A DNA stretch of 64,000 nucleotides from a virus: the IMG/VR virus record IMGVR_UViG_3300019889_000011. One strand, given 5' to 3'. Every line of letters begins with the position of its first letter. Within the stretch, counting starts at the first letter, position 1. The translations under genes and the position numbers were made by a program. Below, in pieces: positions 1-58,140 of the stretch. Under the pieces are notes generated by a model. It saw only the letters and a list, made by a program, of their open reading frames with translations, was not told where the DNA came from and did not search any database.

Positions 1-851
1 TGATTGCAGAGGGACAGCGCAGCGGTCAAATGCAAACTGCTGGAGATAACGCTGGCGCACATCGAGGAAAACAAAGGTCGTCGTGTGGCACGACTACCTT
101 ACGCGACTTCGGTATATCACGCGACCAGTCCTCGCGGTGGCAAAGGCTCGCGGAGATACCGAAGAAAGAGTTTGACGAGGCACTTATTGCAGATGACGTA
201 CCGACGACTATCGGGGTGATGCGAACCATTGCAATTGCACATAAGAACGCCCACCGCGAGTCGGTTGCCAAGCAAGCATCGGATACCTGCACGACATCAG
301 ACCTCTCCCAGCTCGCCGGGAGAGAATTCGGAACCATCTATGCGGACCCGCCGTGGCTCTATGGCAATCAGGGCACGCGCGCATCCACCGGCAACCACTA
401 CGGCGGCATGACCGTTGATGAGATCTGCGCGCTCCCGGTCGAGGCCACGGCCTCCGCAAACGCGCACCTGCATCTCTGGACGACGAACGCGTTTCTTTTC
501 GATGCGAAGCGCGTCATGGAGGCGTGGGGCTTCGAGTATAGAAGCTGCTTCGTCTGGGTAAAGCCGCAGATGGGCATTGGCAACTACTGGCGTGTCTCCC
601 ACGAGTTCATGCTCCTTGGCGTTCGCGGTTCGGCATTGTCATTCAACAACCATTCACTCATGAGCTGGGGCCAGTTCGACCGGACGAAGCACAGCGCCAA
701 GCCGGAGGCCATCAGGGCGCAGATCGAAAGCGCCAGCCCCGGCCCCTATCTTGAGCTGTTTGGAAGAAGACCGGCAACCGGGTGGACCGTCTGGGGCAAC
801 GAGATCAAGCTCTCCATGTTCGATCAGGATTTGCAGGAGGTCGTCGCATGA
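1..851 (+). CDS. DNA N6-adenine methyltransferase, MT-A70 family (5' end lies upstream of the window)
   Basis: Motif IYADPPWLY (DPPW catalytic motif of MT-A70/Dam-like MTases). The frame is open from position 3. The N-terminal segment is duplicated at 57745-58128. Confidence 0.7.
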   Translation, partial: IAEGQRSGQMQTAGDNAGAHRGKQRSSCGTTTLRDFGISRDQSSRWQRLAEIPKKEFDEALIADDVPTTIGVMRTIAIAHKNAHRESVAKQASDTCTTSDLSQLAGREFGTIYADPPWLYGNQGTRASTGNHYGGMTVDEICALPVEATASANAHLHLWTTNAFLFDAKRVMEAWGFEYRSCFVWVKPQMGIGNYWRVSHEFMLLGVRGSALSFNNHSLMSWGQFDRTKHSAKPEAIRAQIESASPGPYLELFGRRPATGWTVWGNEIKLSMFDQDLQEVVA

Positions 852-1384
852 GCCAGTACTCATGGGAGCAAACGCTTGCAGTTGAACGCCGAGGCAACGA
901 CGTGCTGGATGCCGTGTTTGGCGCTGAGCACATCATCGTCAAGGCAACACATGCTCACCAGAGACAGAAGATTGATCGCTTTCACATCGACAAAAAAGAT
1001 GGCCGGTTGGTCTTCCGAGTCGACTACAAGGTCGATATAAAGGCCGGTGAGACTGACAATCTCGCGCTGGAAGAAGTGTCTGTGAAGAAGAACGGTAAGG
1101 TCATCCACAGAGGCTGGATTCACACCACCATCGCCGACATTGTCGTCTTCTACGTGCCTGATCGCGAGTTTGCATATGTTCTGGAAATCCCGGCGCTCAG
1201 GGAGTGCTGGCCGAATATCCAGGCGAGATTTGTTTTGCGGACCACATCGACCCTTCGCGATGGTGACAAATATGAGACCGACTTCTATGCGGTTCCAATC
1301 GCATGGCTTCGTCAGAATCACCTGATCCTAAAGGAAATTACGGTAATCGACAGCCAGATGAGACTCGCGCTGAGGCGTGCGTAA
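848..1384 (+). CDS. Hypothetical protein, translationally coupled to the MTase (ATGA overlap); possible nuclease partner
   Basis: ORF with ATG at 848 overlapping the upstream stop. No recognisable motif; an R-like partner is speculation only. Confidence 0.45.
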   Translation: MSQYSWEQTLAVERRGNDVLDAVFGAEHIIVKATHAHQRQKIDRFHIDKKDGRLVFRVDYKVDIKAGETDNLALEEVSVKKNGKVIHRGWIHTTIADIVVFYVPDREFAYVLEIPALRECWPNIQARFVLRTTSTLRDGDKYETDFYAVPIAWLRQNHLILKEITVIDSQMRLALRRA

Positions 1385-1417
1385 TGAATATTTTTAGCTC
1401 CGAAGAAAAGAGACTCT

Positions 1418-2566
1418 ATGAGTGACCAAGACCTGATAGTGCTTCCGCAGCAATCCGATGCGTCTGACGCCATCCCGCCGCTAAGCCAGTCCATGTATGA
1501 GTCGATGGCCTGCCCTGCCAGCTATCAGGCGCAGTACGTGCATGGCATCTTCTCTCCGGCGAACATCTACAGCGAACTCGGCCAGGAGGTGCACCGCTGC
1601 ATGTCCCTCTACGCCGAGCACCTGAAGGATATCGACCGCGAGGAGGATTGGGTCTTCTTCGAACGAACGCTGGCCACCTTCACCGAAGAAGCACAGAAGA
1701 TCCTCCGTGGCGTGATCGGCTCGATAATCTTCAATCCCCAAGCCATCCTCAGCACCGAGTTGCGCTTCACCGACTATGAAGATGGCGCAGGCACGCCCGA
1801 CCTGATCACGATGGAGACTTCGGTCGACGCGACGATCTGGGATTACAAGAATTACTTTGAGATGATCGAGGCCGACACCTTCCAGTCGAAGCTCTACCCT
1901 CTGCTGCTTTTCCGCCACAATCCCAATCTGGAAACGGTGCGATTCGTTCTAGTGTTTATGCGCTATGGCCGGACGCGGGAGGTCACGTGGACGCGTGACC
2001 ACGTGCCGTATCTGGAGAAGGTCCTATCAGATGCCCGCGTGCGGCAGAAGGCCATCCATGAGACGCCCGGGCTGGCACGCGCTATCCCCGGCAAGGCGTG
2101 CGACTATTGCCCGCTGTTGCGCACGATGCGGTGTCAGGTGAATGCGTGGAACCCATACGCCACGATGACCACCTCAGATCGCCTGCGTTACATCCTGTTT
2201 CTGCGCGCTGCGCTCAAGGGCAGTACGGAGATTGTCCGCAGCGCAGCGCGATTTGAGCCGGTCACGACGCAGGACGATAACGGCAAGGTCTACGAAGCCA
2301 GCTTCGTTCCAACAGAGAAGCGCACATTGCCGCTGCTCCCGACACTGACTGTGTTGCAGCAACACTTCGACGAATCCGGCGAAGACCTGTCACTCAAGGC
2401 CAACGTGTCGAAGACGTCGCTCGCCAGCCTGCGCCACGCCAAGAAGCGCGTTCTGCTCGATCAGGCGCTCACGGATATCGAGCTGGTGAAGGAGACGACC
2501 AGCTTCAAAATCACCAAAGCCAACCCGGAACAACCGGATGAGGCATACGGCGACAGCGAGAGATGA
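1418..2566 (+). CDS. PD-(D/E)xK nuclease, Cas4/RecB-like, with C-terminal Cys cluster
   Basis: GTPDLITME...IWDYK (D..E.K arrangement) and CDYCPLLRTMRC cysteine cluster. The following gene is tightly linked. Confidence 0.45.
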   Translation: MSDQDLIVLPQQSDASDAIPPLSQSMYESMACPASYQAQYVHGIFSPANIYSELGQEVHRCMSLYAEHLKDIDREEDWVFFERTLATFTEEAQKILRGVIGSIIFNPQAILSTELRFTDYEDGAGTPDLITMETSVDATIWDYKNYFEMIEADTFQSKLYPLLLFRHNPNLETVRFVLVFMRYGRTREVTWTRDHVPYLEKVLSDARVRQKAIHETPGLARAIPGKACDYCPLLRTMRCQVNAWNPYATMTTSDRLRYILFLRAALKGSTEIVRSAARFEPVTTQDDNGKVYEASFVPTEKRTLPLLPTLTVLQQHFDESGEDLSLKANVSKTSLASLRHAKKRVLLDQALTDIELVKETTSFKITKANPEQPDEAYGDSER

Positions 2567-2576
2567 GGAGCGAACG

Positions 2577-4322
2577 ATGAAGATCAACCGGGTCATATTG
2601 AAGCACATCCGCAGCCACAGCCATACCGTCATCCCGTTCGAGCGCGTCAGCTTCATTCGCGGCAAGAATAAGTCCGGCAAGACAACGGTCGCGATGGCGA
2701 TAGAGATGGTGCTGGCTGGCCGCTGCGCGGTCACCGATGAAGCTGGCAAGGGCTATGAGGAAGTCATTCAGGTGGGCCAACAGACGGGCACTGTGATCCT
2801 TGAGTGCGACACCGTCACTATCACCCTGACGCTCGACCGCAGCACCGGACGCACGCTCAAGGTACAGACCGGCGTCGGCACTACGAACGAACGAATCATG
2901 CTTGGCAAACAGGCTCAGGAGTGGATCGCCGAGAATATCGGCACCCCGGACGTAATCAACGCGACGCTCAATGCGTGGCGCTTCATGAGGCTGAGCGAGA
3001 ACGAGCAGGCATCGTTGCTGGCTCGCGTGCTTCTGCCGGCAAAATTGGAGCTTGAACCGGAGGTCAACAAGTGGCTTGCTGGCAGCAGATTATCCGTCGT
3101 CGAACGTCCTTCCTTGTTCGCAACCATCGAGGCAACCTACAAGGCTATCGCCGCTGCCCGTACCGACGTCAATCGCAAGCTGCGCGACCTGAAGGCCATC
3201 GTCGAGCCGGAGCCGACCGACGTTAGCGACAACGGCACGGTGGCCGCAGAGCTGGCCGGGAAACGTCGTGCCCTCGATGAGGAGATTGAAAGCATCGCCC
3301 GTCCTCTGACTTCGCTCCGCGAGAAGTTGTTGAACGATGAGACACGCAAGGCGCTCGAACTCAATGCACAGCTGCGAGAGCGACAGCCGCAGATACGCCT
3401 CACACTGATCGCCGAGCGTGACAACCTTGCGCGGATCGAGGATACGCTCAGCCATGCTGACGACGCCGTGTGTCCCACCTGCAAAGCGAAGCTGACACCG
3501 GAGGCGAGCAAAGCGTTTTTCGCTCCCTTCCGCGCGCGGGAGACCGAATCGAAGGCAACAATCACGCGACTGGAGAAGGAGTTGAAGTCATCCATCGACG
3601 CGGAGGTCGGCTCCAAGCAGCTGGCGGTCGACACTTCCAACCGGCAGGTGGTTCGTGACGCCGAGGGCCAGCTTGGACGATTGCGCGACCGGCTCGACTC
3701 TCTCAGCACTACCGACACCCTCGTCGCGAAGGCAGCGTTCGAAGCCAAGCACGCGGCATACGAAAAGCAAGTGAAGGAGCGCGAGCGCGCAGAGGTTCAA
3801 CTCGCCGAACTCGAAAAGCTGCTCGTGTTCTTCGGTCCTCGTGGCATCAAGGCAAAGCTAATCGCGGAGCGCCTGGACCTGTTCACGGAACACGTCAACG
3901 GCGTGCTCGACCAATGGGGATACTCGCTGGGCTTCACCATCGAGCCGTATTCGCTGCGCATCACGGAGACCGACCCAGAGACCGGCTTCGTTGGCCCGAT
4001 GCTCAGTCCCAACCAACTGAGCGCCTCTGAGTCATACCGGCTCGGCATTGCCTTCAGCATGGCGATTGCCTACTGGACCAACCTGCGTCTGCTCGTCGCA
4101 GACGGCGCGGACATTCTCGACAAGGACGACAAGTGGACGCTTGCGCAGGCGTTCCTGCAATCGGATCTGGAGCAGGCCATCATGACGTCGACCGGCATCG
4201 CAGGCACGTTTGAAGCGGCGGGCACGGCGTTCTACACACTATCGAAGTCCAACGGTGTCACAGCGCTCGAAGTGGACGCGGTTACGCCGATGGCTGAGGA
4301 GGTGGTGACCACATGCCGGTGA
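2577..4322 (+). CDS. SMC/Rad50/SbcC-like ATPase with zinc hook
   Basis: Walker A GKNKSGKT at the N-terminus, long coiled-coil middle with a CPTCKAKL CxxC hook, and a C-terminal LLVADGADILD Walker B / D-loop region. SD GAGGAG lies upstream of ATG 2577. Confidence 0.7.
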   Translation: MKINRVILKHIRSHSHTVIPFERVSFIRGKNKSGKTTVAMAIEMVLAGRCAVTDEAGKGYEEVIQVGQQTGTVILECDTVTITLTLDRSTGRTLKVQTGVGTTNERIMLGKQAQEWIAENIGTPDVINATLNAWRFMRLSENEQASLLARVLLPAKLELEPEVNKWLAGSRLSVVERPSLFATIEATYKAIAAARTDVNRKLRDLKAIVEPEPTDVSDNGTVAAELAGKRRALDEEIESIARPLTSLREKLLNDETRKALELNAQLRERQPQIRLTLIAERDNLARIEDTLSHADDAVCPTCKAKLTPEASKAFFAPFRARETESKATITRLEKELKSSIDAEVGSKQLAVDTSNRQVVRDAEGQLGRLRDRLDSLSTTDTLVAKAAFEAKHAAYEKQVKERERAEVQLAELEKLLVFFGPRGIKAKLIAERLDLFTEHVNGVLDQWGYSLGFTIEPYSLRITETDPETGFVGPMLSPNQLSASESYRLGIAFSMAIAYWTNLRLLVADGADILDKDDKWTLAQAFLQSDLEQAIMTSTGIAGTFEAAGTAFYTLSKSNGVTALEVDAVTPMAEEVVTTCR

Positions 4323-4906
4323 GCACATCGCTCCGCTTCGAGATCTTCGCTAGAGATGGATTTGTCTGCCAATACTGCGGCCATCGCCCGCCCGACGTCG
4401 TGCTCGAAGTCGACCACGTGCACCCCGTATCCAAAGGCGGGACAGATGATTCGATCAACCTCATTACAGCGTGCTTCGGTTGCAACCGAGGTAAGGCCGC
4501 AAAGGTACTCTCGAATATTGCGCCACGACCGGACGCGGACCTTGCTTACCTTCGGGAGGCTCAGATTGCCGCAGAAATGAAGCGGTTCTTGAAGACGCAA
4601 CGAGAGGCCAATAAGCAAATCGAGCTTGTCTGCCAGCACTTTCGCGAACGGTGGAGATTCTATCTTATGGAGCCGCCGCCGGACCCCGTGAAGCTCACGT
4701 TTTGGGTCAAGCGGTATGGTCCCGACGAGCTGGAAATATCTATCACGCGAGCCGGTGCAGCCTACCGTGTCGGTCGTTTCTACAACTCATACGACGCAAT
4801 CAGATACGTCGGAGGGATTCTGAAGTCCCGCGACAATGGCGGCGAACTACCACCAAAAACACCTCAACAACCACCTGTGCAGCCCGCAGCCTTCGATGAG
4901 TTCTGA
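4313..4906 (+). CDS. HNH endonuclease
   Basis: CQYCG...EVDHVHPVSKGG...NLITACFGCN (HNH motif with CxxC pairs). It overlaps the upstream ATPase gene by 10 nt (coupled). Confidence 0.75.
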   Translation: MPVSTSLRFEIFARDGFVCQYCGHRPPDVVLEVDHVHPVSKGGTDDSINLITACFGCNRGKAAKVLSNIAPRPDADLAYLREAQIAAEMKRFLKTQREANKQIELVCQHFRERWRFYLMEPPPDPVKLTFWVKRYGPDELEISITRAGAAYRVGRFYNSYDAIRYVGGILKSRDNGGELPPKTPQQPPVQPAAFDEF

Positions 4907-5753
4907 CATGGCCGCTCTTCCCTACATGCAGCTTTACGTGGCCGAGTATCTAGCCGATACGACGCACCTGAATGCTGCTCAGCACGGAGCCTACCTCCTC
5001 CTGCTGATGAACTACTGGCAACGCGGAAAGCCGCTCAGCAACGCCGACGGTCGTCTAGCGTTCGTTGCACGAATGTCACCGCAAGAGTGGGAGGAAAACC
5101 GCACCGTGATCGCAGAGTTTTTCGACGTGCAAGCTGATGAATGGATACATCATAGGGTCGAACGGGACCTTCAATTTGTCACGGAGAAATCCGGCAAAGC
5201 GAGTGCCGCTGGTAAAGCGAGTGCAGCTGCCAGATTCAACGCTCGTTCAACACCCGTTGAACAGCCGCTGAAAGAACGTTCAACCATTAAGACTTTAACA
5301 GAAGAGATTAAGACTTTAAAAGAAAGTACAAAAGCAAAGTCTATTGTGCCTACGGCACTGTCGACGGGAACCGTCGACGATCCCCCGACCTTGCTTGGGC
5401 TAGATCCTTTTGAGCCGAAGCGCACCCCAAATGAGTACGCGGTGTACTGGAACTCTCACCGAGGAACATTGCCAGCCGTCGATGTACCACTGGTCGAGAG
5501 CCGCGCTCAGAAACTCAAAGTGCGGATTCATCAAGGGCTGACGCCAGAAAAATTCCGGGAGGTGATCAGAAAAGTTCATGCGACCCCTTTCTGTCTAGGC
5601 GACAACGACCGCAGCTGGCGGGTGACGTTGGACTTCCTGATCGCCAATGACAAAAACATTTCCAAAATCCTGAAGGGTGACTACGACCGCGCTGCGAAGC
5701 CGAAGCCGGTCCGCGTCGCCATGAACAGCAACTTTAGGGAGCAGGCGCGATGA
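4896..5753 (+). CDS. YdaU/DUF1376-family phage replication-associated protein
   Basis: N-terminus LPYMQLYVAEYLADTTHLNAAQHGAYLLLLMNYWQRGKPL matches the DUF1376 signature. It sits directly upstream of the DnaB gene. Confidence 0.6.
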   Translation: MSSDMAALPYMQLYVAEYLADTTHLNAAQHGAYLLLLMNYWQRGKPLSNADGRLAFVARMSPQEWEENRTVIAEFFDVQADEWIHHRVERDLQFVTEKSGKASAAGKASAAARFNARSTPVEQPLKERSTIKTLTEEIKTLKESTKAKSIVPTALSTGTVDDPPTLLGLDPFEPKRTPNEYAVYWNSHRGTLPAVDVPLVESRAQKLKVRIHQGLTPEKFREVIRKVHATPFCLGDNDRSWRVTLDFLIANDKNISKILKGDYDRAAKPKPVRVAMNSNFREQAR

Positions 5754-7165
5754 AACAGCTTGACCATGAACGGTACATAAGCCCGGTCGACAACTACGGA
5801 ACCGAGATGACGGTGCTTGGCGCGATTCTGGTGGATAGCCACGCATACGACGAAGCAGAGTCGATCACATACAACGACTTCGGACTCAGCTCACACCGGA
5901 CCATCTTCGGGAGGATGGCCGCGATGATTTCCGATGGCAAGGTCGTCGACATCGTCACGCTGTCCGAGGAGATGCGCAAGCACCGCGAGCTTGACGCTGT
6001 CGGCGGCGTTCCCTATCTCGCCTCCCTTAGCGAAGGGCTGCCGCGTCGCCTATCCATCGAGTCGTATGTGCGGATCGTGAAGGACAGGTCGCAACGCCGG
6101 TCCCTGATGAAGCTGTGCGACCACACCGTGACGCTGGCCGAAGACGAGAGCATCGGCACCGACGAGCTGCTGACTGACACCGACATGCGGCTCATGGAGA
6201 TCAGCGCAGAGAACGAGGCGGTCCACACGGTGACGCTGGCTCAGGCGTCCGACCGGGAGTTCGAGAAGATCATCGCGGAGCGGGACTCGAACAAGAGCTT
6301 CATCGGCATCCCCACCGGCCTCGATGTGCTTGACGCCAATGTCGGAGGCTGGGTGGAGGGCGAGCTGGCCGTCATTGCCGGGAAGCCGGGGCAGGGGAAG
6401 TCGTCGGCGCTGATCCAGACCCTTGTGCAGTGCGGCATGGATCGCGTTCCGGCACACATCTTCTCGCCGGAGATGACCAAAGGCCAGATACTGCGCCGCG
6501 TTTGGGCTGCCGTGGCGTCGCTGCCGTTCCACCTGCTCACACACCCCACCTTCCTGCACAGCGCCGACGTGGGGCGTTTACGCGAAGCAATGGCCGAGGT
6601 GTCGGGTTGGCCGCTGGTGATCGACGACGACAGCAACATCACCCCCAGCCAGCTCATCTCACGCGCGCGCATCTCCAAGCGGCGAAACGGCACGCGGCTG
6701 TTCGGCGTCGACTACCTGCAAAAGATGCACTTCCTGTCGAAGCCGGAACACCGCCACATCGAGGTCAGCGATGCCGCCGTCAAGCTGGCCAACCTTGCGA
6801 AGAAGGAACACGTCGCGGTGGTGGCGCTGAGTTCGCTGACGGACAAGGGTGGCAGGGCAAGGAACGCGCCGCCGACGTTGGGCGACCTGCGCCAGTCCGG
6901 GGATATCCAGTACGAAGCGTCGACTGTGGTCTTCATCCACCGCGAGTCAGAAGAGTCGACCGAGCAGATCAAAGACGACGGCTGGATGATCATCCCCAAG
7001 CAGCGCAACGGCAAGACCGGCCAGTTCGAAGTCCGGTACAACGAGCGGCTGATGTTTGAGGCGGGGAGCCAGCAGCGGACGTTCTCGGAACAAGCGCCGC
7101 GACCCACCCCAAAGCCGCGAGCCGTGCAGTATGCAATGCCACACAAAAACGACGTTTTCGATTGA
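5750..7165 (+). CDS. dnaB: Replicative DNA helicase DnaB
   Basis: N-terminal DnaB domain, then GIPTGLDVLD...AGKPGQGKSS Walker A and a RecA-like C-terminal region (DYLQKM, SSLTDKGG). Confidence 0.85.
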   Translation: MKQLDHERYISPVDNYGTEMTVLGAILVDSHAYDEAESITYNDFGLSSHRTIFGRMAAMISDGKVVDIVTLSEEMRKHRELDAVGGVPYLASLSEGLPRRLSIESYVRIVKDRSQRRSLMKLCDHTVTLAEDESIGTDELLTDTDMRLMEISAENEAVHTVTLAQASDREFEKIIAERDSNKSFIGIPTGLDVLDANVGGWVEGELAVIAGKPGQGKSSALIQTLVQCGMDRVPAHIFSPEMTKGQILRRVWAAVASLPFHLLTHPTFLHSADVGRLREAMAEVSGWPLVIDDDSNITPSQLISRARISKRRNGTRLFGVDYLQKMHFLSKPEHRHIEVSDAAVKLANLAKKEHVAVVALSSLTDKGGRARNAPPTLGDLRQSGDIQYEASTVVFIHRESEESTEQIKDDGWMIIPKQRNGKTGQFEVRYNERLMFEAGSQQRTFSEQAPRPTPKPRAVQYAMPHKNDVFD

Positions 7166-7343
7166 TCAGCAAAGCGGGGTCCAGAGATGGCAGAGATGCA
7201 GAGCATTGAACAGGTGATACGAGCGACGGCGGAAGAGTTCGGGCACTGCCCCGGCTGGACCAAGCTGCTCGCAGATGCACTGACGGAGCTGTACACGACG
7301 CGCCGCAAGTTATCAACGGAAGAGCAACCAACGGAGGATACCA

Positions 7344-7571
7344 ATGAACCAGCCCACCATCACGCAATCTAGCGCAGAGCCAACAGTGGAGAGCCTCACC
7401 AAGCGGATAGATGTCCTCGAAAGTTTCATCCTTGATTGGATGACGAAAATTACGGCCCTCCAGCGCGACATGCTTAACACCGCCCGAGATTCCAATAACA
7501 ATGTGTTGCGAATCCTTGACCTCATGGAGGGCACGCTCGATGCCCAACCCAAATCTCCGCGACTGATGTGA
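7344..7571 (+). CDS. Small coiled-coil hypothetical protein
   Basis: ORF only. Confidence 0.3.
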   Translation: MNQPTITQSSAEPTVESLTKRIDVLESFILDWMTKITALQRDMLNTARDSNNNVLRILDLMEGTLDAQPKSPRLM

Positions 7572-7575
7572 CGAC

Positions 7576-7758
7576 ATGAATGCTCCACAGGTCTACCTCT
7601 ATCGCTGGAACCGAATGGGCCGCAAAGGTCAGCGCTGCATTGTGCTGTGTCGCGGATCGATGAATAGCTGCATGGTGCGCTTCGAAGATGGCCATGAGGC
7701 TGTGACCAGTCGGAACGCACTCGCGGAGGCCAAGCATCAGGGAGGCGACGATGGATGA
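7576..7758 (+). CDS. Small hypothetical protein
   Basis: ORF only. Confidence 0.25.
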   Translation: MNAPQVYLYRWNRMGRKGQRCIVLCRGSMNSCMVRFEDGHEAVTSRNALAEAKHQGGDDG

Positions 7759-7853
7759 GTTGAAGGTCGTCTTCGTGTTTGTGATCGTCGTCCTGTTCAT
7801 CTACTTGTTCCGCAATCCCAAAGGGTAAGGGTACTCGACAAAGAAGGTTCTCA

Positions 7854-8540
7854 ATGGCGTCGCATTCGAAAAGCAAACGAACGGACCGGGAGTTCAGCAC
7901 GAACTGCCGAACGTCAAACACTCTCGAACCGGATGGACGGGTGAATTTTATGAAAACGGAACAAGATAAACGCGCAGCTGTACTTCGCGGAAAGGAAGGA
8001 CGACGACTAAATCAGCACCCGGCATACGTGACAGCGACACACCTTATAAATTGTCAGAGCCCTTATGACCCATCCGATAGAACACTTTACGCGACGGCGA
8101 ATAATCGCCAAAACCTCCATGATCGCGATGCGCGGATCTCAACCCCGGTAATCACAATATTGGCGGCGACTATGACCATTGAAGAGATGAATGCACTCCT
8201 TCGGCAATCGAACTCGGAAGTAGACGAATCAGTCAGGGCCCTCAACGCAGCTTGGAACAAGGTCAGTGCGATGAAAGAGCTTCTGATCCCCGAGCTACTC
8301 AACATAACAAAACAAATCCAGCAGTCACGCATGACGACCGAACGCGAGATGAACTCCACACTGGAGTGGCTAAAAACTGTGCGTCAGTTCTTTCTGGAGA
8401 AAGACTATGACGCAGAGATGGCGAGGATGCATTCGTTCATCTCCCTCTGTAAAGACATTCAGGCGCTCAAGGATGCCGGTACGCTCGATGCGGTCGCGGA
8501 CCTAGCAATCAAGCTGGCGGTGCAGGAGGTGGCGTCATGA
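7854..8540 (+). CDS. Hypothetical protein in AT-rich segment (start uncertain)
   Basis: ORF in a region of conspicuously lower GC than its surroundings. No motif recognised. Confidence 0.35.
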   Translation: MASHSKSKRTDREFSTNCRTSNTLEPDGRVNFMKTEQDKRAAVLRGKEGRRLNQHPAYVTATHLINCQSPYDPSDRTLYATANNRQNLHDRDARISTPVITILAATMTIEEMNALLRQSNSEVDESVRALNAAWNKVSAMKELLIPELLNITKQIQQSRMTTEREMNSTLEWLKTVRQFFLEKDYDAEMARMHSFISLCKDIQALKDAGTLDAVADLAIKLAVQEVAS

Positions 8541-8605
8541 AAGGTCGCGCATTGAGACGTGCATTGATAACGAGCGATGCAATCCGCATAAATTCAGAGG
8601 TGCCG

Positions 8606-9292
8606 ATGATAACTGACACGACTGAGCTTATCTCTCCTGACGACGCAAAGGAGATGCTCAAGCGAAACGCGGCTAATCGACCTGTGAACTGGAACAAAGT
8701 CGATGAGTTCGCACAAATTATGCGACGTGGAGAATGGCAACTCCATCCGCAAGGAATCATCCTTGACCCGAATGGCAACATTCTCACTGGCCAGACTCGG
8801 TTATGGGCTATCGTTCACTCCGGTGTATCGATCTACATGCGAGTGAGTCGCGGGAGTCCAGCCGAGACCGCATTCGTAATAGACAGGGGGAGACCACAGT
8901 CTTCGCGCGACCTGTCTACACGTCGAACCGAACGCAAGCACAGTCCCATTGAGGCCAGCATTGCGCGGTGCATCTGCGTGCTCAGGGGACAGCAAAAGCC
9001 TTCCGTCGACGAGATCGCTGAGGTGATCGTAGAGAAGAACACCATCCTCTCAAACGTCTTGAAGCAGTGCGCAGGCGCAAAGAAAGATAAAGCGATGCTC
9101 ATGATCCTTGGCGCAATCGCTGAAACTTGCACCGACGTAGAAGGTGCGTCCTCACTAGCAAAGAAGTCCCGAATTTTTGCTGACCAGTTGGAGCGCGCGC
9201 TCCTCCCTTACTCCGTACAGTCATGCTGGGGCCGAGGCGTTAGCTTCGGGATGGCTATGCAGAAGGCACAGGAAACAATACAGCGGACATGA
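8606..9292 (+). CDS. ParB/Srx-like nuclease-domain protein
   Basis: HPQGIILDPNGNILTGQTRLWAIVHSG resembles the ParB N-terminal GxxR/DGxHR region. An SD-like AGAGG lies upstream of ATG 8606. Confidence 0.5.
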   Translation: MITDTTELISPDDAKEMLKRNAANRPVNWNKVDEFAQIMRRGEWQLHPQGIILDPNGNILTGQTRLWAIVHSGVSIYMRVSRGSPAETAFVIDRGRPQSSRDLSTRRTERKHSPIEASIARCICVLRGQQKPSVDEIAEVIVEKNTILSNVLKQCAGAKKDKAMLMILGAIAETCTDVEGASSLAKKSRIFADQLERALLPYSVQSCWGRGVSFGMAMQKAQETIQRT

Positions 9293-9807
9293 TCACCCTC
9301 AAACAATTCAACGACAGCACCAGCCTCAAGCGTCGCCACATGGCCGAACGACTGAAGGAGAAGGTGTGGAAGAGCGGAAAGCGTGAAGGCAAGGTACGAC
9401 GCGCGAAACGCGAACTGCCATTCACTTTGCAAGAGTTCCGCGCATGGGTCATGGAGCGCATGGGACTTGGGGCGAAGCGCTGCTTCTACTGTCCGCGTCC
9501 CATCGATTGCCTCAGCTTCGAGCCAGACCACTACATGCCGCTGGAGCTTGGCGGCGGTGTTGGCCTCGACAACCTCGTCGACTGTTGTGAGGACTGCAAC
9601 CGGCTGAAGGGCGCGATGCCACCTGATGATTTCATTCTGCTAATGGCGTTCATGGATACAAACATCTCTGCGGCGGGCCGCAACGATATCAAAAAGCGGC
9701 TGCGGGCTGGCGCGATGGGAATACGTCAGCGTCACTTTCCCGGAGAGAAGAAGCCACCGCAGCGAGTCGAGCCGGTCGCTGCGACCAAGGAACTGGACTT
9801 TTTCTAA
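9289..9807 (+). CDS. HNH endonuclease
   Basis: CFYCP...EPDHYMPLELGG...NLVDCCEDCNRLKG. Confidence 0.7.
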   Translation: MITLKQFNDSTSLKRRHMAERLKEKVWKSGKREGKVRRAKRELPFTLQEFRAWVMERMGLGAKRCFYCPRPIDCLSFEPDHYMPLELGGGVGLDNLVDCCEDCNRLKGAMPPDDFILLMAFMDTNISAAGRNDIKKRLRAGAMGIRQRHFPGEKKPPQRVEPVAATKELDFF

Positions 9808-43226: not shown

Positions 43227-44426
43227 TTAGGAGGCTGGCGACGAGTTGAACGCACCAGACACGAAACTTCCGGGACGAAGGACCACGAGCGCAAGCCGCT
43301 TTTCTGCACGAATGGCGACGAGGTTCTTCGTGAAGAAGTCAGAGTGCTCCGTCGAAATCTCGACCTGCATCTCCATGCGGTCGCGAATCTCAGCGGCTGC
43401 TGACTGGCCAGAGCCGACAAGGAAGGTGCCCGACACGACGCCGTTGGTCGGCACCGTGATCAAGTCCCAGATGGTCGGATTGCCCTGCGTTTGTGGATCA
43501 CCAAGGATGTAGCGTCCCAAGGTGTCCTTCGTGCGTCGGATGTTCCACCAGTCGCGCGGGTTGAGCGCCACGAAGGTGGGCTCGATCTCGTCGGCAATCT
43601 CAATCTGTTCGATTGCGGCACCGAGTTGATCGATCCGGGTGAAGCTGGACCCCAGCAGTGAGGCATTGAACGGAGTCGCCTGAGTGATCAAACCGTTCAA
43701 GTTCTCGCCGGTGTTGTCACCGCTCAGAAGCTGACGCTCCTCTTCGCGGTTGACATAGTACGGCATCGCCGAGCGCAGGAAGCCTTCGAGTTCAGTGAAG
43801 TCATCGAGCGCCTGCCGTGACGCCGGAATCCAGCTGGCAATCGTCTTCACCGCTGCGGTGGCAGTGGTAAAGGTGACTCCCGCTTCCGGCTTCTGGAGCG
43901 TTTCAGCAACCGGCGACGCGATGTTCGGCGGCTGGTTGACCTTGACGTAGTAGATCAGTCCGGCTGTCGTTGGTCGCGAAGAGAGCATGTCGCGGATGGT
44001 GAGCTTGCGACGTGCTTCCGGCACGATTCCCGGCATACGTTCGATCTCGACTACGCCAGCGGTTCCGGCACCGAGACCGGACAGCGTGACTGTGGTCTTG
44101 ACCTCCATCAGGTCCGATACCTGCTTACCGCTCAGGTTGATGATGGCGTGACCTTTCTTGTCGCGAACAAGGCGGCTAATATCCTCGTTCTCTTTCAGAT
44201 AGTCCAGCAACGATTTCTGTGTTTCTGGGCTGTTGCCGAGCCGCTGTACCAGCTTCAGTTCGAGCGCGTCGTACTGAGTCTGGAGCGCCTTGAGTTCGGT
44301 GACGGTGGTGGAGAGGACAGTGCCGTTATTCTTGGCTTCCTCGCTTGCCTTCTCAAAGTGGTTCTTGAGTTCGGCCTGTAGCGCCACGAGCTTTGCTTCG
44401 AGGGCTTTGGTGTCCTGATTTTCCAT
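43227..44426 (-). CDS. Major capsid protein, HK97 fold (with N-terminal delta domain)
   Basis: 399 aa with a coiled-coil N-terminus then the HK97-like core. Paralogous to 58907-60091. It follows the protease gene. Confidence 0.85.
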   Translation of the reverse strand: MENQDTKALEAKLVALQAELKNHFEKASEEAKNNGTVLSTTVTELKALQTQYDALELKLVQRLGNSPETQKSLLDYLKENEDISRLVRDKKGHAIINLSGKQVSDLMEVKTTVTLSGLGAGTAGVVEIERMPGIVPEARRKLTIRDMLSSRPTTAGLIYYVKVNQPPNIASPVAETLQKPEAGVTFTTATAAVKTIASWIPASRQALDDFTELEGFLRSAMPYYVNREEERQLLSGDNTGENLNGLITQATPFNASLLGSSFTRIDQLGAAIEQIEIADEIEPTFVALNPRDWWNIRRTKDTLGRYILGDPQTQGNPTIWDLITVPTNGVVSGTFLVGSGQSAAAEIRDRMEMQVEISTEHSDFFTKNLVAIRAEKRLALVVLRPGSFVSGAFNSSPAS

Positions 44427-51401: not shown

Positions 51402-51683
51402 CTAACCCTTCGCTTGAATGGTGAGGTTCACGTTCTGGTAAGCGCCTGCTTTGGTGTTCCAATCGCTGAAGCCCATGTGACCATTGGCAGAGACGACCAC
51501 TGATCCATCTGGATCGAACGTATCCAGACACTGAACAATCGTTCCGTGAACCAGCCTCACCGTTTCCTTCTCACCTTCGTCCGCGAGACCAGCAGGCGCG
51601 TCTGACAAGGGATAAGAGAACTGGCGGTCAAGCTCCACCTTCACGTCTTCGATCTTGCCGCTTGCACTAACGCTCCAGCTCAT
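51402..51683 (-). CDS. Hypothetical protein
   Basis: ORF only. Confidence 0.3.
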   Translation of the reverse strand: MSWSVSASGKIEDVKVELDRQFSYPLSDAPAGLADEGEKETVRLVHGTIVQCLDTFDPDGSVVVSANGHMGFSDWNTKAGAYQNVNLTIQAKG

Positions 51684-51719
51684 AACTTCCTTCCTTCTCT
51701 CCCGCTTGGGAGGGGGTCT

Positions 51720-52061
51720 CTACTGTTCGTGCAGCTTGGACGGGTCGATGAGCTTCTGTGCGTCCGCGTCCGCGATGGCCACGTTGGTGATCATCTCGGT
51801 CAGCAGCTCAGCCCACTCGGTGAAGCGCGGGTCGATGGTCGTGTCGTTCTTCACTGCCGCAATGATGGGGAGCAGGTCTTGCAGAACGGTGACGGTCTCG
51901 TCCGATGCCGTGCCACGGTTGCGGAGGTCTTCGATGAGGCTCAGCACAGCAGGCGTCAGCCCGCTGACGAGGCTGGCGATGCTGGCGGGCACGTTGACAC
52001 CGAACGTACCGAGCAGGGCGGAGAGGAGAGTAAGTGCTAATCCGGGGAGCTGTTCAATCAT
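51720..52061 (-). CDS. Membrane protein with N-terminal TM (i-spanin candidate)
   Basis: N-terminal hydrophobic LALTLLSALLGTFGV then a helical body; adjacent to the lipoprotein and lysozyme genes. Confidence 0.3.
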   Translation of the reverse strand: MIEQLPGLALTLLSALLGTFGVNVPASIASLVSGLTPAVLSLIEDLRNRGTASDETVTVLQDLLPIIAAVKNDTTIDPRFTEWAELLTEMITNVAIADADAQKLIDPSKLHEQ

Positions 52062-52489
52062 GGCTTGACTCCAATCGTTTCAACAGGCGGGATAGGCGCA
52101 CCATCACTGAGCGCAGTGGTGTACTTCGATTGCATCGTGTCGTAGCTGCCCTTCAGAGCGTCGGCGTCGGCCTGCGTAGCAGCCGTGGCCTTGTGATAAG
52201 CGTCCCACAGACGATGTGTGGTGTTGTATGCCTGCGCGAGGCTGTCCATGCCGGTCACCATTGCGGGGGTTGGGTGGAAGCTTCCGTCCGCAACCTTGCC
52301 CTTGTAAGTTTCGAGCACGGCCTGAATGTCGCGGAGGCCGCGATATACCTGCGCGTCGAGCGCGCTAGTCTGGCCCGGGACAGGAGCGGTGACAGTCTGG
52401 TGAGTGGCGCAACCGGTCGTGCAGCCTGTCAGCAGTCCCATTGAGCCGACGACGAGTGCGATTGCGAGGATGATGCGCTTCATAATCAT
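52058..52489 (-). CDS. Lipoprotein (o-spanin candidate)
   Basis: MIMKRIILAIALVVGSMGLLTGC lipobox. Overlaps the lysozyme gene end by 4 nt. Confidence 0.4.
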   Translation of the reverse strand: MIMKRIILAIALVVGSMGLLTGCTTGCATHQTVTAPVPGQTSALDAQVYRGLRDIQAVLETYKGKVADGSFHPTPAMVTGMDSLAQAYNTTHRLWDAYHKATAATQADADALKGSYDTMQSKYTTALSDGAPIPPVETIGVKP

Positions 52490-53058
52490 GTTTGCTCCCT
52501 TGCAGTGTTGCCTGCCAAAAGAAACTGTTCCTTGGTCCACGCGTTCCGCTCCTCCGATGGACCGATACGGTGACACTCCAAGCTGGCTGCCTCCCATCGC
52601 TGGAGTTTGACCAGCTGACAGAACTTCGGGAAGTTCAGCCGCAGCTTCGTAACGCCGAGATTGAAACACATATCAATCAATGCGATCTTGGCCGGGGCCG
52701 GGTAATCGTGGAAGTCTGGGAAGAGCGACGCGAGGTCACTCACGCATTCCGACATCGTCTTCCGCAGGGCTTCGTCGATATCTTCATCCGCGAGCAGGAG
52801 TGAATCTGAACGCCGGTATGCCTTGGCGCTGTATCCCGGCGTCATCTGCTGGACGCGGGTGAACTCGGCGATGATCTCAGCATCGTCCGCGAACTCGGCG
52901 TTGGGACGACGGAAGCGATAGTCGAGCGCAGCTTCTGCGTTCGGGATCATCTCGCCGACGCCAACCGTTACCGTTGCCTGCTTGTTCGTGTCGAGATACA
53001 TCCAATGAATGCGGCCTTCAAAACTGGCGGTGGCTGCGACCGCATCATCGAGATACAT
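52486..53058 (-). CDS. Endolysin, T4-type lysozyme (GH24-like)
   Basis: SFEGRIHWMYLDTNKQATVTVGVGE parallels T4L [21 protein letters not shown] (catalytic Glu). ALIDMCFNLG...LQRWEAA parallels T4L ALINMVFQMG...QQKRWDEAA. Confidence 0.75.
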   Translation of the reverse strand: MYLDDAVAATASFEGRIHWMYLDTNKQATVTVGVGEMIPNAEAALDYRFRRPNAEFADDAEIIAEFTRVQQMTPGYSAKAYRRSDSLLLADEDIDEALRKTMSECVSDLASLFPDFHDYPAPAKIALIDMCFNLGVTKLRLNFPKFCQLVKLQRWEAASLECHRIGPSEERNAWTKEQFLLAGNTAREQT

Positions 53059-53062
53059 GGTT

Positions 53063-53470: not shown

Positions 53471-53543
53471 TTGGAGTGGGGAGGGTGGTTGCAGTGAAAC
53501 TGGACCGGGCAGCCATGCAAAGGTCGCCCGGTCCGATCCGGGA

Positions 53544-53753: not shown

Positions 53754-53773
53754 TTGGAGTTGTCTCCTGCGGG

Positions 53774-54610: not shown

Positions 54611-54637
54611 CCCCGCGAATGACGCGGGGTTTGTTTG
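54611..54637 (+). promoter_or_regulatory. Perfect palindrome CCCCGCG-AATGA-CGCGGGG + TTTGTTTG (terminator-like hairpin or operator)
   Basis: 7-bp inverted repeat with 5-nt spacer followed by a T-run on the plus strand. It lies in the divergent switch region with no plus-strand gene upstream. Confidence 0.4.
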
Positions 54638-55213: not shown

Positions 55214-56327
55214 TGGAGCAGGATCGAACCTTCAGATCATGGGTGAGGCCAACATTGCCAGCAGCGCAGCACGCGTGCAGGCCGAGACCGCCGCGTCGAT
55301 CACCGTGGCACAACGCTTCAAGCGCAGCGAGTCGCAGGTACGGCAAGACCTGTTGAATGCGGTGAAGGCATCGCCCCGGCTCGCGGAGAAGGCGGCATAC
55401 AGCTACCCGCGCGGCAAGCGGCAAGACCCGGTGACGAAGGAGTGGGTCGAGAACATCATCAGCGGCCCGTCAACCTACATTGCACGCGAGGCAGCGCGCG
55501 TGTGGGGGAATCTGGTCTATGGCACAGAGGTCATCCGCGAAGCCGATCACGAGCGGCAGATTCGCTCCTTCGCATGGGACATGCAAACCAACATGCGCTG
55601 TCTGGCTGAGGCGACCTTCAAGAAGCTGGTCCAGCGCAGCCGATGGGTGAAGAAACCCGGTGCCAAGGATGAGAAGGTCACCGAGTGGGTGGAGCCCGAT
55701 GAACGCGACCTGCGCGAGCTGAGCAACAAGTACGCTTCGATTGGTGAGCGCAACTGCATCCTGAAGATCGTGCCGTCGCACCTGATCGATGAAGTGCTGG
55801 AGACCGCGAAGCAGACGACTCGCGAGGATGCCGCCAAGCACCCCGAAGCGGTGAGAGCGAAGCTGGCCGATGCATTCCAGTCTGTCGGCATCTCCGTCGC
55901 ACAGATCGAAGAGTATCTCCGCCATCCCCTCAACCAGACGACGCCCGATGAGATGGCTGACCTGCGCGGCATCTTCACGTCGCTGCGCGAAGGGAACTCC
56001 GTCTGGGACGACTATCGGCACACAATGCTGCCGTCTGACGACGAGGTTGCGGAGATGCCGCAACTGCGTGAGCTGGCTAAGCGGCTCAAGTGGAATGAGG
56101 CCAAGCTCGCCAACGAGATCGGGCGCAACATCGATGACATCCCGAAGCTCCTCTCATTCATGAATGAGCAGGTAGCGAAGGTGAAGGCAACTCAACCCGC
56201 GTCATCGCCGGTCGAGTCATCGCCGCGATCTGACCACGCGGAGAAGCCGGAGCCAGAGGTCATCCCGCCAACGAACGCACAGCGCCGTCCTCGCCAGTCC
56301 GCGCCACCGCCTGCACGCGATTTCTAA
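55188..56327 (+). CDS. Hypothetical early protein (379 aa), Pro-rich C-terminus
   Basis: ORF, possibly with a GTG start. A role as a recombination or replication accessory protein is only a guess from position. Confidence 0.45.
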   Translation: MDSETITPSGAGSNLQIMGEANIASSAARVQAETAASITVAQRFKRSESQVRQDLLNAVKASPRLAEKAAYSYPRGKRQDPVTKEWVENIISGPSTYIAREAARVWGNLVYGTEVIREADHERQIRSFAWDMQTNMRCLAEATFKKLVQRSRWVKKPGAKDEKVTEWVEPDERDLRELSNKYASIGERNCILKIVPSHLIDEVLETAKQTTREDAAKHPEAVRAKLADAFQSVGISVAQIEEYLRHPLNQTTPDEMADLRGIFTSLREGNSVWDDYRHTMLPSDDEVAEMPQLRELAKRLKWNEAKLANEIGRNIDDIPKLLSFMNEQVAKVKATQPASSPVESSPRSDHAEKPEPEVIPPTNAQRRPRQSAPPPARDF

Positions 56328-57744: not shown

Positions 57745-58140
57745 TTGTTTGACCGCGTGAATGCAATGAACCTCGGCCTCGTGAAGTATGACGCAATGAT
57801 CCTCGCTATCGAAGCGTGCGAACGCATCGATGAAGTGAAAAGCATCATCGATAAGGCGCGTGCCCTCGAGGTCTATGCTGCGCAGGCCATGAATACGGAG
57901 GCAGAAGCCAAGGCGGCGCGTATACGTATCCGTGCCGAGCGGAAGACGGGTGAGTTGATTGCAGAGGGACAGCGCAGCGGTCAAATGCAAACTGCTGGAG
58001 ATAACGCTGGCGCACATCGAGGAAAACAAAGGTCGTCGTGTGGCACGACTACCTTACGCGACTTCGGTATATCACGCGACCAATCCTCGCAGTGGCAGAA
58101 GCTCGCAGAGATACCGAAGGACGATGGCAGGCAAGCCAGA
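57745..58140 (+). pseudogene. Truncated 5' fragment of the methyltransferase gene (copy of the gene running off the window start)
   Basis: 57956-58128 is near-identical to 1-172 (perfect for about 127 nt), then diverges into unrelated sequence. The downstream MT-A70 domain is absent. Confidence 0.5.

Follow-up and report, generated by a model that had tools for sequence, protein, structure and literature searches.

A zinc-hook ATPase and a Cas4-like nuclease in a phage early arm: a probable recombination core within a mosaic region

Five adjacent phage genes encode an MT-A70 methyltransferase, a small protein (ORF178), a PD-(D/E)xK nuclease, a zinc-hook ATPase and an HNH nuclease. Do they form a single defence or restriction-like module, or do some of them belong to the recombination machinery of the phage itself? 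We addressed this question in a window of 64,000 nucleotides, the whole stretch analyzed, from IMG/VR virus record IMGVR_UViG_3300019889_000011. We found all five on the + strand (Table 1), with the domains that the original prediction had named, as judged by Pfam, PHROG and PADLOC profile matches. The proposal that they constitute one module was wrong, since synteny among relatives divides them into three unrelated units. The region 1-4906 is a mosaic of a nuclease and ATPase core, a cassette of methyltransferase and ORF178, and the HNH gene.

Table 1 Features of the region and of its flanks in the window.
Feature	Position	Strand	Profile match or remark
phrog_3657 protein, 362 aa, candidate single-strand annealing protein	55239..56327	+	
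MT-A70 methyltransferase, 5' part	57745..57955	+	runs on at window position 1 over the circular junction
MT-A70 DNA methyltransferase, 3' part, DPPW motif	1..851	+	PF05063 E=9.7e-17 (ORF 30-851)
ORF178 (178 aa)	848..1384	+	coupled to methyltransferase, start/stop overlap in ATGA
Cas4/RecB-like PD-(D/E)xK nuclease, conserved ~140-aa C-terminal extension	1418..2566	+	PF12705 E=1.9e-11
Rad50/SbcC-like ABC ATPase, 581 aa, short antiparallel coiled coil and zinc hook	2577..4322	+	
ATPase Walker A/P-loop GKNKSGKT, residues 29-36 (G29-T36)	2661..2684	+	
ATPase zinc-hook motif CPTC, residues 299-302	3471..3482	+	coiled-coil apex
ATPase ABC signature LSASE, residues 481-485	4017..4031	+	family-conserved
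ATPase Walker B and D-loop LLVAD-G-A-D-ILD, residues 505-515	4089..4121	+	non-canonical
Free-standing HNH endonuclease, ~120-aa C-terminal domain	4313..4906	+	PF01844 E=4e-12; phrog_14314 E=4.1e-28
DUF1376 (YdaU-like) replication initiator/primosomal protein	4896..5753	+	PF07120 E=4.8e-22; start may be 4908
DnaB-type replicative helicase	5750..7165	+	PF03796 E=2.7e-51; PF00772 E=3.1e-22

Genome layout and the place of the five genes

The phage genome is a circle or a terminally redundant unit with a length of 57,955 bp, and positions 1-164 of the window recur as a 97% copy at 57956-58119. The methyltransferase gene is cut by the window start; the full 353-aa gene is made up of 57745-57955 joined to 1-851, and the ENA contig (L001) is continuous from 57745 through 57955 to position 1, with a 353-aa MT-A70 gene called there. 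The early arm begins near window position 54767, with five further genes, including the annealase candidate, upstream of the methyltransferase gene, and the block is thus not at the head of the arm as had been stated. Its placement just ahead of YdaU and DnaB replication genes was borne out, with the DUF1376 protein, whose PHROG families are annotated as primosomal protein, and DnaB coming next.

The methyltransferase also matches phrog_359 (E=6.5e-55) and the PADLOC MTase_II model (E=8.9e-48). ORF178, whose start codon overlaps the methyltransferase stop codon, is the coupled small ORF that had been described ahead of the block. It found no match in Pfam, PHROG, PADLOC, NCBIfam or the PDB, and an alignment with its 18 homologues shows a conserved pattern, D43...D59-x-K61...E75, that may resemble a PD-(D/E)xK motif. 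At the other end of the block, the ATG of the HNH gene overlaps the ATPase stop codon by 10 nt, in line with the translational coupling that had been noted, and the HNH core (CxxC...H...N...CxxC) is intact.

The nuclease, the zinc-hook ATPase and the annealing-protein candidate

As originally described, a Cas4-like PD-(D/E)xK nuclease precedes the ATPase, at a distance of 10 nt. In addition to the Pfam match in Table 1, it matches phrog_69 “exonuclease” (E=8.3e-14), and its matches to Cas4 models are weak, both in PADLOC (best E=2.1e-5) and for TIGR00372 (22.6 bits, with a cut-off of 65). The nuclease motifs D128, D142-x-K144 and QxxxY are conserved. Cysteines are arranged in a 1+3 pattern, with Cys32, Cys228 and Cys231 invariant together with the motif residues, and the four cysteines would bind an Fe-S cluster. 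No CRISPR-Cas protein families were found in the Pfam matches of the 64 larger ORFs of the window, and the enzyme appears to be Cas4-like in fold and cysteine pattern only, rather than a CRISPR-associated Cas4. Its predicted activity is that of an exonuclease, which we propose serves end resection in a recombination module.

The ATPase has a head fold of the Rad50/SbcC type together with a coiled coil and a zinc hook. In an AF2 model (pLDDT 84.5) helices 270-296 and 308-419 make up the antiparallel coiled coil, with the CPTC motif between them at its apex. Among 155 family representatives, the Walker A lysine (K35) and the first hook cysteine (C299) are invariant, and the second (C302) is found in 140. 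HMMER aligned LSASE with the LSGGE signature of M. jannaschii Rad50, and the Walker B, with its aspartate at D509, with IILDEPTVyLD of Rad50. Of the motifs originally listed, Walker A, the coiled coil and the CxxC hook are present, but the Walker B is non-canonical: glycine takes the place of the catalytic glutamate, an acidic residue stands at +3, and the H-loop histidine is replaced by threonine. Across the family (n=155) the Walker B +1 position is mostly R (59), G (29), E (20) or A (15), +3 is acidic in 153 representatives, and none has the H-loop histidine. Because the Walker B glutamate is mostly lost, and the histidine is lost in all, the family probably works as a slow ATP switch. This reading is uncertain, since the near-invariant acidic residue at +3 could restore hydrolysis.

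With NCBIfam Rad50 equivalog models the protein scored about 25 bits, whereas their cut-offs are 700-1000. Its divergence is such that tblastn at 1e-5 matched the window ATPase to no cultured phage.

The phrog_3657 protein encoded across the circular junction is a candidate for the third conserved member of the module, with a Rad52/Red-beta-like fold and a Red-beta-CTD-like tail. It has no sequence-level similarity to RecT. Searches of the 64 larger window ORFs (7 + 57 scanned) yielded no match to Mre11/SbcD, RecA, RecT or Erf.

Gene order in relatives and across the ATPase family

For close comparison we used nine distinct relatives, with ATPase identities of 26-66%. Their conserved order is an annealase candidate of ~390 aa, 0-5 variable genes, nuclease, 0-1 small ORF, ATPase, initiator and DnaB/primase-helicase. 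The nuclease gene lies directly 5' of the ATPase gene in 7 of the 9, and in two of these (L009 and L011) the genes overlap or are 3 nt apart. In the remaining two a single small ORF intervenes, of 81 aa in L004 and of the DUF6166 type in L007, and these ORFs are not conserved.

More widely, the ATPase family is large: clustering at 50% identity gives 629 clusters or more (E<=1e-30). For 47 non-identical IMG/VR loci, all of them phage contexts, as they were drawn from a viral database, the flank 5' of the ATPase was 3 kb or longer, and in these we counted same-strand genes up to 5 kb upstream. RecT or phrog_3657 was found in 38, a PD-(D/E)xK nuclease in 29, and either in 41. A Pfam tally of 83 upstream ORFs gave PDDEXK_1 (15), RecT (12), RdgC (3), YqaJ (2) and Metallophos (1). 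SMC-like proteins beside recT/red-beta genes have also been reported in a survey of Firmicutes phages (PMC8093625). Some database records label homologues of the ATPase as “chromosome segregation protein”.

The same three parts as in the window occur in one operon in the temperate phages phi297 of Pseudomonas (NC_016762), Magia of Burkholderia (MT701587) and PY223 of Bordetella (PP230461), namely a PD-(D/E)xK nuclease, RecT (in PY223 a phrog_3657 homologue) and a zinc-hook ATPase of ~570-590 aa from the same HMM family, with a Walker B of the form hhhDR and no H-loop histidine. The order is nuclease, annealase, ATPase in Magia and PY223, and in phi297 an FtsK-gamma protein stands between RecT and the ATPase. 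Such FtsK-gamma-domain proteins directly 5' of the ATPase gave 27 ORF matches, in Pseudomonas/Burkholderia-type prophage loci. In all three phages the ATPase gene is followed by a methylase or regulator rather than by replication genes. The window differs from them in that its nuclease is larger, of the Fe-S Cas4 type with a C-terminal extension, and adjoins the ATPase, whereas its annealase is set apart by five cargo genes and the FtsK-gamma protein is missing. The genes of these modules carry annotations such as “AAA family ATPase”, “putative recombinase” and “hypothetical”.

A probable recombination module and the competing readings

Our combined findings suggest that the core of the block is probably a recombination module of exonuclease, annealase and end clamp, next to the initiator and DnaB genes. 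The original prediction had offered this as its alternative, namely a Rad50-like ATPase whose partner is a PD-(D/E)xK nuclease instead of Mre11, and both the synteny and the family-wide linkage to annealases and exonucleases support it. The module would consist of the Fe-S nuclease, the ATPase and the annealing protein, whose gene lies 2.7 kb upstream over the circular junction, and would directly precede the replication genes. From the observed domain identities, motif states, synteny and exonuclease/annealase linkage we infer the steps of a possible mechanism. The ATPase would dimerize on ATP and clamp dsDNA ends like Rad50, and its zinc hook may bridge two DNA molecules; such a role in clamping, tethering or protecting ends is suggested by the Rad50 fold and the gene neighbourhood. 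Since the Walker B glutamate and the H-loop histidine are both missing, the ATPase would be expected to switch or clamp slowly under the control of ATP, and not to cycle fast. It may position the nuclease, possibly via the conserved C-terminal extension of the latter, and/or shield the DNA end from host RecBCD, AddAB or SbcCD. The nuclease would then resect the end and the annealing protein would pair the 3' tail with complementary ssDNA, which could lead to circularization, concatemers and recombination-dependent replication.

Such a module would differ from the known systems closest to it. Unlike SbcCD/Mre11-Rad50, it comes without an Mre11/SbcD phosphoesterase, both among the 64 window ORFs and family-wide, where 1 of 83 upstream neighbours is of this kind. 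The coiled coil is short (~110 residues per arm), and the ATPase lacks the Walker B glutamate (kept in 20 of 155 family members) and the H-loop histidine (0 of 155). Relative to lambda Red (Exo, Beta, Gam) and RecET, the third component is a Rad50-like ATPase instead of the RecBCD mimic Gam, the exonuclease is an Fe-S enzyme resembling Cas4 and not lambda Exo or RecE, and the annealase is not similar to RecT in sequence.

The HNH gene and the methyltransferase/ORF178 pair lie outside this core because neither is conserved alongside it, and the same gene orders bear on two readings that span the core and its neighbours. A restriction-modification-like unit of all five genes, in which the MT-A70 enzyme protects phage DNA from the phage's own nucleases (ORF178, the PD-(D/E)xK enzyme and HNH), would fit the translational coupling of methyltransferase and ORF178, the recurrence of this pair elsewhere and the nuclease-like pattern in ORF178. 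Yet the cassette and the nuclease/ATPase pair occur separately, which contradicts such logic. Among the relatives the cassette is present in this phage alone; it is absent from L004 and L007-L010, its slot is filled by unrelated genes in other relatives, and the nuclease/ATPase pair occurs without any methyltransferase in all of them. Conversely, a contig from an unrelated phage (L095/L096) carries the coupled cassette of MT-A70 and ORF178 without nuclease and ATPase. Of four contexts of ORF178 and its homologues, two show coupling to MT-A70 and two have no adjacent methyltransferase, which would be intolerable for a classical restriction enzyme. We therefore give the five-gene unit almost no credence; methyltransferase and ORF178 travel together as mobile cargo, occupy a variable slot and probably serve self-methylation against host restriction. 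Equally improbable is a Septu-like PtuA-PtuB pair made of the coupled ATPase and HNH proteins. As in Septu, an ABC-type ATPase gene is followed by an overlapping HNH gene, and the HNH protein has a weak PtuB match (PDLC00315, E=7.5e-7). However, the ATPase has a coiled coil and a zinc hook, PtuA models cover its P-loop region only, and an HNH gene lies 3' of the ATPase in just 2 of 9 relatives. The two HNH proteins, of the window and of L004, are unrelated (BLASTP E=2.2), and homologues of the former occur in hundreds of unrelated phages; its gene was probably inserted independently or is of the homing type.

Two further readings concern the core itself. It could be a phage-borne Lamassu-like system (LmuA-LmuC-LmuB, also DdmABC or ABC-3C), in which an LmuB-type end sensor restrains an LmuA-like PD-(D/E)xK effector with a C-terminal domain, freed to degrade DNA at superinfection or abnormal replication, with abortive infection or exclusion as the outcome. 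LmuB is the best PADLOC match of the ATPase (E=9.2e-15 and 8.3e-13), and 38 of 38 sampled family members match LmuB models (best 5.5e-22). In its length of ~600 aa, its Rad50-like make-up, its short coiled coil with CxxC zinc hook and its degenerate Walker B the ATPase also resembles short LmuB, whose Walker B reads hhhhD[Q/S/T/E] (PMC12663957; bioRxiv 10.1101/2025.03.14.643221), and the nuclease with its 140-aa extension directly upstream recalls the LmuA-(LmuC)-LmuB order. LmuC is missing from some Lamassu clades (PMC12663957), and the small ORFs of L004 and L007 occupy its place, but they are not conserved, none exists in the window, and no LmuC match was obtained with PADLOC models. Moreover, the nuclease is of the RecB/Cas4 exonuclease type, matching such models only and no LmuA or Cap4 model in PADLOC, scores of the ATPase with the SbcC-like phrog_77 equal or beat those with LmuB, and solved LmuB is more distant from its fold than Rad50 and SbcC are. 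Nor is the setting a defence island: the pair is not sporadic, since all relatives, even at 26% identity, keep it in synteny at the core of their replication/recombination arm, and annealases are linked to the family in most loci (38/47). The Lamassu-like reading is thus unsupported and we consider it unlikely. We are similarly doubtful that the ATPase serves replication or genome organization, be it origin or replisome assembly with DUF1376 and DnaB or phage DNA compaction and segregation, with the nuclease as an independent neighbour. The initiator/loader and helicase genes always directly 3' of the ATPase in the window clade would agree with this, as would the segregation labels and the FtsK-gamma neighbours. 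On the other hand, in phi297, Magia and PY223 the ATPase keeps the exonuclease and annealase as neighbours but is not followed by replication genes, and DNA-end processing, unlike the work of hinge-type condensins, is where a Rad50 fold with a zinc hook is typically found.

A wider generalization of the recombination module is speculative and, in our judgement, unlikely to hold. In it, phage exonuclease-annealase recombinases would generally have a member of the ATPase family as their third subunit, functionally analogous to Gam: an ATP-locked clamp that tethers DNA ends and shields them from RecBCD, AddAB or SbcCD. The family, carried by phages, would also be the sister of LmuB or the source from which it came. 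The family and LmuB share a short coiled coil, a hook and a crippled Walker B.

Synteny of the early genes

The window opens with tightly packed genes on the + strand (positions 1-7165), and all of the genes named there by the original prediction were found. Its proposal that five of them, from the MT-A70 methyltransferase (MTase) to the HNH gene, form a single block was not borne out. Because neither the HNH gene nor the MTase/ORF178 pair is conserved with the nuclease-ATPase core, the five genes are rather three independent units, as seen from synteny in nine relatives and from the contexts in which ORF178 and HNH homologues are found.

Coordinates of features in the window and in related loci
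Feature	Location	Strand	Remarks
MT-A70 methyltransferase	30-851	+	part visible in window
ORF178, 178 aa	848-1384	+	start overlaps MTase stop (ATGA)
PD-(D/E)xK nuclease, 382 aa	1418-2566	+	
ATPase, 581 aa	2577-4322	+	AGGAG ribosome-binding site upstream
HNH protein, 197 aa	4313-4906	+	10-nt overlap with ATPase stop
DUF1376 initiator	4896 or 4908 to 5753	+	
DnaB	5750-7165	+	
HNH_5 endonuclease	9289-9807	+	
Ribosomal protein S10 homologue	10761-11078	+	PF00338, E=7.3e-34
SPFH/Band_7 protein	11816-12634	+	early arm
Cargo slot region	54767-851		across junction
phrog_3657 protein	55239-56327		annealase candidate
Second capsid gene copy, 394 aa	58907-60091	-	50-62% identity to capsid gene 43227-44426
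MT-A70/ORF178 cassette	L095 2979-4546; L096 2384-3954		unrelated phage contig
Small ORF, 120 aa	L007 9636-9998		DUF6166
Small ORF, 81 aa	L004 9759-10004		no family
FtsK-gamma protein	L027-L066, L081, L090, L092, L093; phi297 2721-3692		between RecT and ATPase

The close family of the ATPase comprises 22 proteins, all metagenomic, whose contigs reach ~67 kb (several being 57-62 kb long), and five of its loci are in IMG/VR. Nine relatives with 26-66% ATPase identity were compared, namely the window and contigs L004, L007-L012 and L016. The same order was found in 9/9: a phrog_3657 protein (~360-415 aa), zero to five unrelated small genes, the nuclease, at most one small ORF, the ATPase, an initiator or loader, and DnaB or a primase-helicase. 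A scan of genome contigs yielded only one relative, on a phage-sized contig of 61.6 kb binned into a Pyrinomonadaceae MAG, and no evidence for homologues in defence islands. This contig is the sole hint of a host, and the phage lineage is probably acidobacterial.

Among the relatives, an HNH gene lies between the ATPase and initiator genes in the window and L004 only, and the two HNH proteins are unrelated to each other. Homologues of the window HNH protein are spread through hundreds of unrelated phages. A second endonuclease gene of the HNH_5 type, further downstream, is unlike it in that its position is conserved, being kept wherever a relative has sufficient flank (L002, L004, L007, L008, L009 and L010).

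The MTase and ORF178 genes were found only in the window phage among the relatives. ORF178 has 18 homologues, and on an unrelated phage contig (L095/L096) an MT-A70 gene again lies ahead of it and overlaps it, neither a nuclease nor an ATPase gene being close by; two other contexts had no adjoining MTase gene. MT-A70 and ORF178 are thus a recurring, translationally coupled two-gene cassette, present in two unrelated phage backbones. The invariant residues of ORF178 (D43, D59-x-K61 and E75) resemble a PD-(D/E)xK pattern, and no model matched it. The ORFs that take its position in L008 and L009 were rejected as homologues, a homology test having shown them to be unrelated. The interval from the annealase candidate to the nuclease is a hot spot for cargo, with zero to five unrelated genes (DUF7352 and unknowns in L004 and L007-L010). 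The window's own cargo comprises a 197-aa protein weakly matching DnaJ, ORFs of 96 and 155 aa, the MT-A70 methylase and ORF178.

The nuclease matches PF12705 (E=1.9e-11) and phrog_69, "exonuclease" (E=8.3e-14), with weak matches to Cas4 models that are under the TIGR00372 cut-off. Seven orthologues keep E114, D128, D142-Y-K144 and Q156-x-K-x-Y160. Three Cas4/AddB-type cysteines (C32, C228 and C231) are present in 7/7 orthologues and a fourth in 6/7, and a C-terminal extension of ~140 aa (residues 240-382) is conserved along with the nuclease. PDB sequence-profile searches with the nuclease, ORF178 and the annealase candidate returned nothing useful.

The phrog_3657 protein has at least 460 homologues and a confident AF2 model (pLDDT 89), and gave no match in Pfam, NCBIfam or PDB sequence searches. 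One homologue occupies the RecT position in Bordetella phage PY223, and the annotator of a Bacillus phage remarked of another that it is "next to a recE homologue in 20/20 phages". Both observations support an annealase role, and we consider the protein, with moderate confidence, to be a Rad52-superfamily annealase. By sequence it was rejected as a RecT (1% probability in hhalign against the RecT profile). Orf53 of Pseudomonas phage D3, a Gabija-licensing factor adjoining exo-erf (PMC12407980), was rejected as a homologue (hhalign probability 0.1%), and no ATPase of the window family was found in the D3 early region around exo-erf (28-42 kb).

The zinc-hook ATPase and its family

The ATPase was scored against the families named in the original prediction. 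The top PADLOC matches were to LmuB models, though partial (E=9.2e-15 for residues 184-497 and 8.3e-13 for residues 1-71), whereas PtuA models matched at the P-loop end only (E ~3e-4). In PHROGs, phrog_1499 (annotated "unknown") matched over the full length (E=2.7e-19), followed by the "SbcC-like" phrog_77 (E=2.7e-16). NCBIfam scores were ~25 bits for Rad50, against a cut-off of at least 700, and 13.8 for PtuA, against 500, and none of the six proteins scanned had an NCBIfam match above cut-off. Judged by these sequence scores, the protein is a Rad50/SbcC-like zinc-hook ATPase outside every curated family. Foldseek did not discriminate between candidate families, tblastn against 50,697 phage records gave no match at 1e-5, and blastn of window 1-7200 gave trivial matches only. 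No experimental work on the family was found in the literature.

The first in-frame ATG of the ATPase gene, at 2538, is not the start that homologues use. An alignment of 18 homologues has invariant Walker A residues (G29, N31, G34 and K35), Q-loop Q144, C299 and C302, the signature L481-S-x-S-E485, Walker-B D509 and D-loop D515. Its profile matched Rad50 heads in the PDB (3aux, E=2.2e-11), and the CxxC region matched the isolated Rad50 zinc-hook structures 1l8d (E=2.6e-5) and 6zff (5.9e-5). In the AF2 model (pLDDT 84.5) an antiparallel coiled coil, with arms of ~110 residues each and CPTC at its tip, interrupts the ABC head. Relative to other homologues, the window ATPase and one homologue, P0003, are shortened by matched deletions, of 26 and 30 residues, one in each arm (at residues ~217 in the ascending and ~376 in the descending arm of the window protein), as an antiparallel coiled coil would require for its arm to be shortened with the register kept.

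In HMMER, LLVAD-G-ADILD of the ATPase aligns with IILD-E-PTVyLD of M. jannaschii Rad50, and therefore glycine stands in place of the catalytic glutamate and threonine in place of the H-loop histidine. Searching 1.84 billion representatives with a profile recovered 629 family proteins at E<=1e-30, nearly all of 580-690 aa and with full-length matches. Of 155 full-length representatives, 59 have R, 29 G, 20 E and 15 A directly after the Walker-B aspartate; the H-loop position is never histidine (0/155), and an acidic residue is found at Walker-B +3 in 153. The residues for ATP binding and dimerisation are intact, and the sequences suggest a slow ATP-switch type of protein.

We estimated how often the ATPase lies beside recombination genes by scanning IMG/VR with the ATPase sub-alignment, which gave 75 loci annotated by local HMMs; the counts cover 47 non-identical ATPases whose upstream flank was 3 kb or longer, and genes lying up to 5 kb upstream on the ATPase strand. 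Of these ATPases, 38/47 had a RecT-type or phrog_3657 gene and 29/47 a PD-(D/E)xK nuclease gene, with both in 26 and at least one in 41. For ATPases with Walker B "D-R", a nuclease gene or a RecT-type/phrog_3657 gene was upstream in 33/33. A separate Pfam tally of 83 upstream ORFs gave PDDEXK_1 (15), RecT (12), FtsK_gamma (11), RdgC (3), YqaJ (2), RNase_T (2) and Metallophos (1).

Cultured temperate phages have similar orders: nuclease, RecT-like protein and AAA ATPase in Burkholderia phage Magia; PD-(D/E)XK nuclease, phrog_3657 homologue and "SbcC" ATPase in PY223; and PD-(D/E)XK nuclease, RecT-like protein, small ORF, FtsK-gamma protein and AAA ATPase (ABC_Rad50) in Pseudomonas phage phi297. 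Matches of ~250-390 aa to the phi297 FtsK-gamma protein lie between RecT and ATPase genes in Pseudomonas/Burkholderia-type prophages (27 ORF hits), and it may be a fourth module component that is absent in the window clade. Genes for SMC-like proteins (PF02463) and AAA ATPases adjoining recT/red-beta had already been recorded, with no function given, in a survey of annealing proteins from Firmicutes (PMC8093625).

A proposed recombination module weighed against defence systems

The evidence best supports a recombination module of the phage, composed of a Cas4/RecB-like Fe-S exonuclease, a Rad52-like annealase and a Rad50-like zinc-hook ATPase. Recombination machinery had been the alternative offered by the original prediction, and conserved synteny and the annealase linkage (38/47) both speak for it. 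Such a module would recast the Mre11-Rad50 logic, with a PD-(D/E)xK partner for the Rad50-like ATPase. By analogy with Rad50 and SbcC, the ATP-bound ATPase would clamp and bridge DNA ends; it would also position the nuclease, and might shield ends from host RecBCD, AddAB or SbcCD.

The likeness to a Lamassu system is real in sensor architecture, since LmuB, like the window ATPase, is a Rad50-like protein of ~600 aa that has a zinc hook and a degenerate Walker B; LmuA, with its C-terminal domain, lies upstream (PMC12663957; bioRxiv 10.1101/2025.03.14.643221). However, membership in Lamassu fails in that neither LmuA nor LmuC was matched, the nuclease-ATPase position is core-syntenic, the ATPase is linked to annealases, and its structure is less similar to LmuB than to Rad50 or SbcC. 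In Lamassu, LmuC holds the place between nuclease and ATPase; the small ORFs found there in L004 and L007 are non-conserved, and absent from the window and five other relatives. Synteny also contradicts both a Septu system, for which the ATPase and HNH genes had been paired, and a five-gene R-M-like unit. The arrangement is not a new defence system but a diverged variant of a module already present in sequenced temperate phages, unannotated and unstudied there. An evolutionary link between the ATPase family and LmuB is possible.

When "ATPase plus nuclease" blocks of phage early regions are read as Septu, Lamassu or R-M systems, the reading can be an artefact of mosaic gene order. The point of interest is the ATPase, which has a Rad50-like zinc hook and a non-canonical catalytic site, recurs beside exonuclease/annealase genes in many temperate phages of Proteobacteria as well as in the window's lineage, and points to a large uncharacterised Rad50-like family associated with the annealing recombinases of phages. 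Should the ATPase clamp, tether or protect DNA ends, it would be a third player in phage single-strand-annealing recombination, might improve recombineering in non-model bacteria, and would provide a phage-side relative for tracing the path from Rad50/SbcC-type end sensors to Lamassu immune sensors. The module can be tested directly in the cultured phages phi297, Magia and PY223.

Genome layout and other gene content

The ENA contig L001 matches window 51525-58119 and then runs on into window 1-9575, and the first 164 nt of the window recur as a 97% copy at 57956-58119. From this the phage genome was deduced to be 57,955 bp long and either circular or terminally redundant. The complete MTase gene begins at 57745 and encodes 353 aa. 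The early arm begins near 54767, five genes upstream of the MTase gene, and not with the block that had been placed at its head.

When 57 further ORFs were searched against Pfam, genes for an HK97-type capsid, prohead protease, portal, TerL, TerS and an integrase were recognised, together with tail genes. No Metallophos (Mre11/SbcD), RecA, RecT, Erf or DNA polymerase was among the matches listed for these ORFs, where only matches weaker than ~7e-5 could be missed. The phage is a temperate siphovirus using host polymerases, and the nuclease-annealase-ATPase module is its only recognisable recombination machinery.

The S10 homologue of the window is also found in L002, L003 and L008, and an SPFH/Band_7 gene lies in the early arm. 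Elsewhere in the window are genes for an N6_N4 methylase, a ParB_N protein, two glycosyltransferases and a GDSL lipase. From 58120 on, the genome is not repeated; diverged second copies of head genes, including the capsid gene, are found instead, and this end of the window resembles a chimera or concatenation with a related phage that arose in assembly.
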